From NCBI GenBank assembly GCA_024680555.1, contig JAILCC010000018.1:49174-113173 (forward strand): 64,000 nt of DNA, in the 5' to 3' direction. Below, one piece after another: positions 29,812-30,411 of this stretch. This DNA comes from a bacterium (GTDB lineage: Bacteria > Cyanobacteriota > Vampirovibrionia > Gastranaerophilales > JAILCC01). The stretch's first letter is position 1; the number at the start of each line of letters is the position of its first letter. The translations under genes and the position numbers were made by a program. The notes under the pieces were generated by a model. It was given only the letters and a program-made list of their open reading frames with translations. It was not told where the DNA came from and searched no databases.

Positions 29812-29838
29812 TAAAGTTTTTTCGCATGCTGCCGATAA
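29812..29838 (+). promoter_or_regulatory. Sigma-28 (FliA)-type promoter, exact TAAAGTTT-N11-GCCGATAA
   Basis: TAAAGTTT at 29812-29819, 11-nt spacer, GCCGATAA at 29831-29838. ATG of the next ORF is 30 nt downstream. Confidence 0.75.
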
Positions 29839-29868
29839 ACATGATGTGGTCGAAACGAGGTCTTAAAA

Positions 29869-30411
29869 ATGCCAGTTAATTTGTACGGAAATATTGGAAC
29901 AACATACACAGGGATAGTTACAGGAGCAGAACTCGAAAGAGTTTCTCAGGAAATTTTTGGTGGAGCTCAAGTTAAGGCAGCTGAAAAAACACAACCTCAA
30001 CAACAAGTTCAAACTCAACAAGCTACTCCACAACAAGTTGATTTGTATTCAAGAAGCACAGATTTGAACTTAACGCAACAAGTTGCTCAAATTAAAACAG
30101 ATTTTAATGTTCAACTTTCTCCTCAAGCTCTTCAAAATATTCAAGCATTGAATGCTTATGCAGCAACTCAACAAGCATCTAATGTTCAAAGAGTTTCTGA
30201 CGGAAGATTTCAACCGATGGTTGACAACAGCCAAAAATCAGATATCGAAACGATTTTTGCAGTACCTCATCCTACAACAATAATTAAATCGTTCTCATTA
30301 GATAAAGACAAAAAGGGTTCAAATCCTTTTGCATACACTCCAAACAACAAAGAAGAACAAACTGATAATACAAACAACTCAAACGGAGCTACTTTCAGCA
30401 TAGTAGCATAA
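29869..30411 (+). CDS. Hypothetical Gln/Thr-rich protein, 180 aa
   Basis: GAGG RBS, sigma-28 promoter upstream, hairpin terminator downstream. No recognisable domain, signal peptide or TM. Confidence 0.6.
   Translation: MPVNLYGNIGTTYTGIVTGAELERVSQEIFGGAQVKAAEKTQPQQQVQTQQATPQQVDLYSRSTDLNLTQQVAQIKTDFNVQLSPQALQNIQALNAYAATQQASNVQRVSDGRFQPMVDNSQKSDIETIFAVPHPTTIIKSFSLDKDKKGSNPFAYTPNNKEEQTDNTNNSNGATFSIVA

Follow-up and report, generated by a model that had tools for sequence, protein, structure and literature searches.

Introduction

The class 3 promoters of FliA (Escherichia, Salmonella) and the promoters of SigD (Bacillus subtilis) share the core consensus TAAAGTTT-N11-GCCGATAA. Sigma factors of the same family (sigma-28) may also control non-flagellar regulons, as is the case for sigma-28 and hctB of Chlamydia and for WhiG of Streptomyces, and in Buchnera a reduced flagellar system has been kept as an exporter. 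Here we describe a promoter with this core in a 64-kb stretch of DNA (contig JAILCC010000018.1; the whole of it is referred to as the window) from a Gastranaerophilales-type metagenome-assembled genome (MAG), where it precedes a gene encoding a protein of 180 amino acids (aa). As in Chlamydia, Streptomyces and Buchnera, a FliA-type sigma factor or export remnants would serve products other than a swimming filament; in contrast to those bacteria, the sigma factor and some of the export genes both persist in Gastranaerophilales, and part of the order is fully flagellated.

Members of the Gastranaerophilales live as symbionts in many guts and have not been cultured; most of them keep few flagellar genes (flhB, fliI, flgG). 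According to Di Rienzi et al. (2013, PMC3787301), some gut Melainabacteria possess full flagellar sets, whereas in MEL.A1 the filament, cap, junction and L/P rings have been lost. Complete sets were found in only 3 of 9 Gastranaerophilales genomes by Soo et al. (2014, PMC4040986) and in approximately 25% of the genomes of this order in a 2026 preprint, according to which the rest keep flhB, fliI and flgG, postulated to serve secretion (bioRxiv 10.64898/2026.04.24.720558). We found no paper on sigma-28 promoters in Gastranaerophilales or Melainabacteria.

The promoters described below resemble those of FliA and SigD not only in the core, but also in their short leaders and dispersed single-gene units. 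They differ in (i) a lineage-specific tandem TGTAA module and an A-tract located upstream, (ii) their sampled targets, which all belong to unknown families, the classical flagellins of the clade being devoid of the core, and (iii) the presumed sigma factor, which is divergent (86 bits compared with a FliA_WhiG cutoff of 190).

Results and Discussion

The promoter and its transcription unit

Positions 29812-29838 of the window (forward strand) read TAAAGTTT-TTTCGCATGCT-GCCGATAA, which agrees with the sigma-28 consensus at 16/16 positions, the spacer being 11 nucleotides (nt) long. The sequence is intergenic: it lies between the terminator of groEL (27998-29647) and the 180-aa open reading frame (ORF), at which it points. 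The distance from the -10 element to the ATG codon (29869) is 30 nt, and a GAGG Shine-Dalgarno sequence is present at 29857-29860. The core and the start signals agree with an earlier note on this DNA, which had reported the perfect match, the exact spacing, the GAGG ribosome-binding site and the ATG 30 nt downstream. Judging from the usual geometry of sigma-28 promoters, transcription is predicted to start at approximately 29845-29847. With intrinsic terminators on both sides, the gene forms a cleanly insulated single-gene unit (29741-30471). Coordinates of all the features are given in Table 1.

Table 1. Features of the window discussed in the text
Feature	Position	Strand	Evidence or remark
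groEL intrinsic terminator, upstream edge of the unit	29741..29770	+	13-pair stem followed by a T-run
Upstream promoter module	29778..29811	+	TGTAAC 29778-29783, degenerate copy CTTAAC 29789-29794, A-tract GAAAAT 29804-29809, then CC
Sigma-28-type core promoter	-35 TAAAGTTT 29812-29819, -10 GCCGATAA 29831-29838	+	exact match, ortholog alignment
Short 5' leader, conserved block TGTGGTCGAAA and GAGG	29843..29868	+	GGTCGAAA and GAGG kept in orthologs
180-aa ORF, K6A44_05645, conserved, predicted mostly disordered	29869..30411	+	homologs and predicted structure
Intrinsic terminator closing the monocistronic unit	30443..30471	+	GC-rich stem-loop and CTTTCTTTTG
269-aa Gly/Ser/Ala-rich protein, K6A44_05650, one hydrophobic segment	30859..31668	-	second module gene, convergent with the 180-aa gene
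182-aa helical-hairpin protein, K6A44_05655, minimal member of the MGxAASQARxLxLTAR family	31684..32232	-	133 homologs, the named ones being Melainabacterial
Second exact sigma-28-type promoter, N11	45948..45974	+	16/16
47-aa ORF behind the second promoter, K6A44_05720	46009..46152	+	8 members of at least 90% identity in other assemblies
Third exact sigma-28-type promoter, N12	16140..16167	-	16/16
57-aa ORF behind the third promoter, K6A44_05540	15925..16098	-	annotated hypothetical protein

The promoter was compared in ten distinct orthologous loci (L001, L003, L126-L130, L137, L138 and the window), which represent five gene neighbourhoods and encode proteins of 44-84% identity. The composite promoter was kept in 10/10 of these loci, approximately 30 nt ahead of the ATG, with a -35 element of the form (T/C)(A/C)AAGTTT, a spacer of 11-12 nt and GCCGATAA, GCCGATAT or GCCGAATA as the -10 element. 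In an alignment of eight of the upstream regions AAGTTTT and GCCGA are invariant (they are also present in the remaining two), as are the upstream TGTAA, the A-tract and parts of the leader (GGTCGAAA, GAGG). The upstream module has its canonical form, TGTAAA-N5-TGTAA(A/C), in L003, L127-L130, L137 and L138, and the copy in the window is degenerate. This phylogenetic footprint strongly suggests that the promoter is functional. Since it is kept in all the orthologs, and since the same extended motif precedes genes for flagellin and FlgM in other phyla (see below), 29812-29838 is very probably a genuine sigma-28-type promoter.

Two further copies of the consensus, which the earlier note had placed at 45948 and, on the complementary strand, at 16167, are both 16/16 matches, the third site differing only by its 12-nt spacer. 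The three copies in the window are all intergenic, each is located 30-41 nt ahead of a small ORF (180, 47 and 57 aa), and the extension CCTAAAGTTTT is common to all of them. The three ORFs are annotated as hypothetical proteins in one MAG (K6A44_05645, K6A44_05720 and K6A44_05540). The first of these had been thought to be probably unannotated; as it is deposited in GenBank (MCR4881419.1), this is not the case.

Distribution of the promoter and its composite architecture

A scan for CCTAAAGTTTT-N10/11-GCCGATAA in one genome per species (approximately 185,000 species) revealed at least 120 loci. In other phyla the first downstream gene was often a classical target: among the matches listed, flagellins were identified at L012, L034 and L039 (by sequence and BLAST) and FlgM at L013, L029, L046, L078, L102 and L115 (by jackhmmer). 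The extended motif is therefore a bona fide sigma-28 signature. Among the matches listed, at least 28 loci were labelled Gastranaerophilales or Melainabacteria, and approximately 20 more were low-GC contigs of gut or rumen MAGs carrying the same protein families, which is a large excess for a single order. Contigs L080, L066, L075 and L021 (32-36% GC), labelled Acinetobacter, Brachyspira or Muribaculaceae, carry Melainabacterial families and/or the TGTAA module, and are probably mis-binned or mislabelled.

The Melainabacterial sites share the extended consensus TGTAAA-N5-TGTAA(A/C)-ATTT-N5-AAAA-N-CCTAAAGTTTT. A tandem TGTAA was detected at 35 of the 50 Melainabacterial motif sites, compared with 0/67 in other phyla (including 0/22 low-GC ones). 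Across 571,549 bp of Melainabacterial DNA we found 64 tandem modules, compared with 11.5 in shuffled sequences (maximum 18), and a sigma-28-like core was present no more than 35 nt downstream of 48 of them. Three of the 16 coreless modules stand directly ahead of classical flagellin genes (L018, L024 and L134), where the core is sigma-70-like (...TATAAT); these modules are located at 3502 in L018, 2791 in L024 and 2098 (minus strand) in L134. The module was found at no housekeeping promoter in the window. Its presence ahead of sigma-28-type and flagellin promoters alike marks it as a separate cis-element, which may serve as the site of an activator or as an UP-like element, and suggests a regulator common to the two promoter classes.

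A relaxed scan (up to 2 mismatches) of Melainabacterial DNA (509,530 bp) revealed 68 sites. These sites precede a few recurrent protein families: (i) proteins of 51 aa (MLKKIATPTNNTFSGVEF...), 137 aa, 57 aa and 90 aa, (ii) giant proteins (860-1,500 aa) in which EF-hand or dockerin-like motifs occur, and (iii) a family of 109-405 aa, with an N-terminus of the form MGxAASQARxLxLTAR..., a C-terminus of the form ...LDTE...KKVIDKNIE..F and a variable middle. None of the families behind the Melainabacterial sites had a match in Pfam, NCBIfam or PHROGs. It is likely, with a good degree of confidence, that the three copies in the window belong to a real, dispersed sigma-28-type regulon, which is specific to Melainabacteria and whose families, as sampled, are uncharacterised. 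The lineage-wide sites and recurrent families thus bear out the proposal that the 180-aa gene is one of a dispersed set.

In some 5' leaders, namely those of the L091 flagellins (minus strand) and of two of the families above (51 aa and 137 aa; e.g. L030, L071), we noticed motifs such as ACAGGAUGU and ACAAAGGAU, with an overlap between one of these and the ribosome-binding site. We take these motifs to resemble the CsrA sites of the Bacillus hag leader, which hints at a FliW/CsrA-type translational control of the leaders in question.

The 180-aa protein

The close family of the 180-aa protein comprises 48 homologs, of which the named ones originate from Candidatus Gastranaerophilales or from unclassified gut or rumen MAGs. 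When 1.84 billion representatives were searched exhaustively with a profile, 107 clusters (at 50% identity) were obtained, whose members are nearly all 160-190 aa long and match over the full length. The conserved blocks are EL..VS.EIF, G.DLY, QIA...G..V.LS..A...I..LN.QAA, a GK pair, KDKkGSNPF and a C-terminal (I/L)(F/V)A; the final Ala is present in 41 of 81 family members, and the tail of the window protein is IVA. The earlier note described a low-complexity core, but the protein is not merely of low complexity, as four sequence blocks are strongly conserved around a variable Q-rich linker.

In agreement with that note, no recognisable domain was found: searches of Pfam, NCBIfam, PHROGs and the PDB sequences all gave no match (for Pfam this was true of all 81 diverse family members, 0/81), and neither a transmembrane segment nor a signal peptide was detected (maximum Kyte-Doolittle 19-residue mean 0.84). 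In view of the missing PHROGs match, a phage origin is unlikely. Modelling by AlphaFold2 with the family alignment gave a predicted local distance difference test score (pLDDT) of 51 and a predicted template modelling score of 0.18, with three short helices (residues 19-29, 62-74 and 85-106). The prediction is thus that of a mostly disordered protein, for which a fold search with such a poor model would be meaningless.

A link with FlgM-type anti-sigma factors had been offered as a guess. The protein resembles FlgM in being preceded by a sigma-28-type promoter, in lacking a signal peptide and in its largely disordered nature, and differs from it in length (180 aa compared with about 90-100), in its conserved N-terminal block and KDKKGSNPF, which have no counterpart in FlgM, and in the absence of any sequence or profile similarity. 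For the comparison we used a FlgM profile composed of the sequences from Salmonella and B. subtilis and of eight FlgM proteins encoded behind the motif in other phyla. The hhalign probability was 0.3% (E 0.24) with alignment A1 and 0.3% with the deeper alignment A3, whereas a held-out FlgM gave 98.1%, and none of the 81 family members matched Pfam FlgM (PF04316). Judged by these profiles, the protein lies outside the FlgM family, and the guess is refuted at the family level.

Linkage with a helical-hairpin module

In the window, L001, L002 and L127 the 180-aa gene is convergent with a two-gene operon encoding the 182-aa hairpin protein and the 269-aa protein. In L129 and L130 the gene (44-45% identity) and a gene of the 90-aa family are instead divergently oriented. 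The linkage between the 180-aa gene and the module exists in two independent arrangements. The module is composed of a hairpin gene, a gene for a protein of 270-315 aa and small genes (75-105 aa), and it spans the range from Gastranaerophilales to Vampirovibrio (L081, L101, L092, L123, L131 and L133). Its first gene has a sigma-28-type promoter in at least 10 genomes (L009, L047, L080, L081, L093, L101, L106 and L131-L133); in Vampirovibrio (53% GC) this promoter reads TAAAGATT-N12-ACCGATAT.

The 269-aa protein, for which no family match was found, has homologs encoded after hairpin-family genes in L001, L127, L081, L101, L092 and L123. Between the window and L001 it is 95% identical, compared with 80-83% for the 180-aa and hairpin proteins. 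The leader of the hairpin operon in the window (32233-32420, minus strand) is approximately 190 nt long and contains a sigma-70-like TTGACA-N16-TAAAAA. Within the hairpin family this suggests promoter turnover, the promoter being of sigma-28 type elsewhere and sigma-70-like in the window.

The AlphaFold2 model of the 182-aa protein (pLDDT 89) is a long helical hairpin formed by helices 3-47 and 105-181. A Foldseek search against PDB gave a best E of 0.1, the top matches being generic coiled coils. The family resembles flagellins and hook-associated axial proteins in having conserved N- and C-terminal helices around a hypervariable middle (109-405 aa), and the L080 hairpin gene stands behind a sigma-28 promoter beside a fliA-like sigma gene. 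In contrast to flagellins, the family has neither the flagellin domains nor a matching fold, and true flagellins exist separately in the clade. With no match to Flagellin_N or Flagellin_C (Pfam, NCBIfam) and nothing below E = 0.1 in Foldseek, the candidate identification as a flagellin or axial protein was rejected.

The presumed sigma factor and flagellar genes of the clade

Contig L080, a rumen contig of 35% GC mislabelled Acinetobacter, has the gene order flhB (TIGR00328, 342 bits), a gene for a 232-aa sigma factor (3011-3709), the motif and a hairpin-family gene starting with MGLAASQARLL. The best NCBIfam match of the sigma factor is FliA_WhiG (TIGR02479), over the full length and with an E of 2.7e-24. 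It has 3,614 homologs, and the best 120 of the 3,614 are at least 86% identical. At its start (3823-3870 of L080) the hairpin-family gene contains an 8-nt direct duplication (GACTGCTA GACTGCTA) by which the reading frame is broken; this reflects either an error of the assembly or a pseudogene.

The flhB-sigma pair is also present in L124, L134 and L136, where it stands alone among housekeeping genes. In L124 it is located just upstream of genes for a rotamase, an M24 peptidase and SpoU; the window contains the M24-SpoU pair (61441-63905) with no adjoining flhB, sigma or rotamase gene. The sigma gene found beside the cluster in L001 was ruled out as FliA, because its product is of the group-2 RpoD-like type. 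A FliI/YscN ATPase (L132; 547 bits, cutoff 380) is encoded in GCA_028696075.1, the same MAG as the ortholog L003. Classical flagellar genes in the Melainabacterial loci comprise flagellins in L024, L091 (three), L018 and L134, and a FlgE/FlgG-family gene in L100. The L018 flagellin (3713-7759) is a giant protein of 1,329 aa, with normal N- and C-terminal regions and an insert of approximately 1,000 residues. No linkage between the 180-aa gene and flagellar genes was observed, either in the window or in the 10 ortholog contexts.

Proposed function and alternative explanations

As a whole, the data are best explained, in our opinion and with moderate confidence, by an insulated sigma-28-type unit which belongs to a lineage-specific regulon and has a late-class product. 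The single-gene unit 29741-30471 would be read from a promoter of the FliA/WhiG type, with the composite structure of a tandem TGTAA(A/C) some 20-30 nt ahead of the -35 element, an A-tract, CCTAAAGTTTT-N10/11-GCCGATAA, a leader of approximately 22 nt and GAGG. The sigma factor reading it would most likely be the divergent, very conserved member of the FliA/WhiG family encoded directly 3' of flhB in Gastranaerophilales. The 180-aa gene would then be one member of a dispersed regulon, beside genes for very small proteins, giant EF-hand/dockerin-like proteins and the three-gene hairpin module, and its product may cooperate either with an export apparatus of the flagellar type or with the hairpin module, as an exported substrate, an adaptor or a regulator. 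On the basis of the promoter class, the disorder, the missing signal peptide and the gene linkage, we tentatively propose for the protein a late-class role, as an accessory, as a substrate of export or as a regulator, in connection with flagellar-type export and the hairpin module. Membership of a motility regulon is plausible.

Several observations weigh against this explanation. The window contains no flagellar, chemotaxis or fliA gene among its approximately 55 annotated ORFs (the earlier note had already remarked on this), and its hairpin operon has no sigma-28 motif upstream. No recognised flagellar gene in the approximately 0.5 Mb of Melainabacterial DNA had the motif directly ahead of it, and the six flagellin genes and one hook gene have no sigma-28 core within 160 nt upstream. 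Locus L134 carries both the flhB-sigma pair and a flagellin gene, yet there is no consensus site in its 20.7 kb. The L080 sigma factor, with 86 bits, is below the NCBIfam cutoff for FliA_WhiG (189.6). The structural model of the 180-aa protein is of low confidence. Finally, in L003, L137 and L138 the 180-aa gene stands alone among housekeeping genes and the module linkage is absent, which makes this linkage recurrent, not universal.

The alternative that survives best, although we regard it as rather unlikely, is that the regulon no longer serves swimming. Genomes devoid of the filament, cap and rings would keep FliA, FlhB, FliI and FlgG as a secretion device, and the sigma-28 promoters would drive lineage-specific cargo or a new surface structure, the 180-aa protein being one of the products. 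This would fit the observation that approximately 75% of Gastranaerophilales keep only flhB, fliI, flgG and similar genes (bioRxiv 10.64898/2026.04.24.720558; PMC3787301, PMC4040986). The flhB-sigma pair and fliI are found alone among housekeeping genes, and the sampled targets all belong to unknown families, including hairpin proteins with conserved terminal helices and a variable middle. However, some of the motif-bearing loci carry classical flagellins, and the hairpin protein has no significant structural neighbour.

A further, speculative proposal is that of a rewired late-gene circuit, in which the FliA-like sigma factor and a TGTAA-binding factor would drive approximately 100 lineage-specific genes per genome, encoding parts or cargo of a flagellum-derived secretion or surface apparatus that has outlasted the filament. 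Hairpin proteins, the Gly-rich, possibly membrane-active protein, tiny proteins, giant EF-hand/dockerin-like proteins and the disordered 180-aa protein might all be encoded by such genes. Irrespective of the exact function, a textbook flagellar promoter marks unknown genes while the flagellins of the clade use a different core, which is unusual for flagellar gene hierarchies. The sigma-28 core with the TGTAA module provides a sharp sequence handle by which the whole regulon may be listed from genomes alone, and such a list would yield candidate substrates and regulators of the remnant apparatus, the 180-aa protein among them.

It is less probable, and in our view doubtful, that the 180-aa protein is the anti-sigma-28 factor of this lineage, i.e. 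a functional analogue of FlgM that holds the sigma factor until it is exported or degraded. Apart from the promoter, the lack of a signal peptide and the predicted disorder with three short helices, this would be consistent with a single conserved gene per locus and with the absence of a recognisable FlgM from the approximately 0.5 Mb of Melainabacterial DNA, compared with FlgM in 8 loci of other phyla. The conserved (I/L)(F/V)A tail resembles a C-terminal degron of the kind known from ssrA-like ClpXP tags, and is regarded as a lead only. On the other hand, the profile comparison and the Pfam search described above gave no relation to FlgM, the protein is twice the usual length of FlgM, and its most conserved block is N-terminal.

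A very improbable alternative is that the housekeeping sigma factor reads the gene from an overlapping sigma-70-like promoter (TTAACA-N16-TAAAGT in the window, TTGTAA-N18-TAAAGT in the orthologs), the sigma-28 resemblance being secondary. A consensus scan does return TTAACA-16-TAAAGT at 29790-29817 (9/12 matches), and in the orthologs the proximal TGTAA copy provides a TTG-type -35 element at a roughly constant distance. Nevertheless, sigma-70-like matches were no more common than in shuffled sequences (3 compared with 2.3), and the downstream GCCGA(T/A)A(A/T), invariant in all the orthologs, would not be required if the promoter ended at TAAAGT. Moreover, the TGTAA module lies approximately 45 nt from the -10 element in the flagellin promoters, which argues for an upstream element and not a -35 element.

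That the copies of the motif arose by chance in intergenic DNA rich in AT (the GC content of the window is 37%) has a practically negligible probability and is refuted by the conservation at 10 orthologous loci and by the shuffles. When spacers of 9-14 nt were allowed, the window contained 3 matches, compared with a mean of 0.00 in 100 dinucleotide-preserving shuffles (0/100 gave any), which upholds the same judgement made in the earlier note.

Other features of the window

The window represents ordinary chromosomal DNA with numerous housekeeping genes, e.g. groEL, nusG-rplK-rplA, valS, metS, dnaE, relA/spoT, secA and mraW-ftsI-murE. A phmmer search with E. coli FliA gave no match in it. Proteins retrieved from the same MAG were MCR4881419.1 (the 180-aa protein), MCR4881420.1, MCR4881434.1 and MCR4881399.1, with no sigma factor among them. 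Rfam detected four tRNAs only.

Composite intergenic repeat arrays follow terminators at 30471-30826, 46207-46474, 13193-13417 (inverted) and 56007-56290. They are built of units of approximately 115 and 134 nt at three of the sites and of a separate unit of approximately 91 nt beside a tRNA gene, the copies being 86-99% identical. Related loci are devoid of the arrays, Rfam gave no match to them, and spurious copies of GCCGATAAT occur within them at 30696 and 46325.

One more gene, at 22993-23874, encodes a type IV pilin-like protein of 293 aa with a prepilin-type N-terminal cleavage/methylation domain (TIGR02532, 27.7 bits compared with a cutoff of 16.3).

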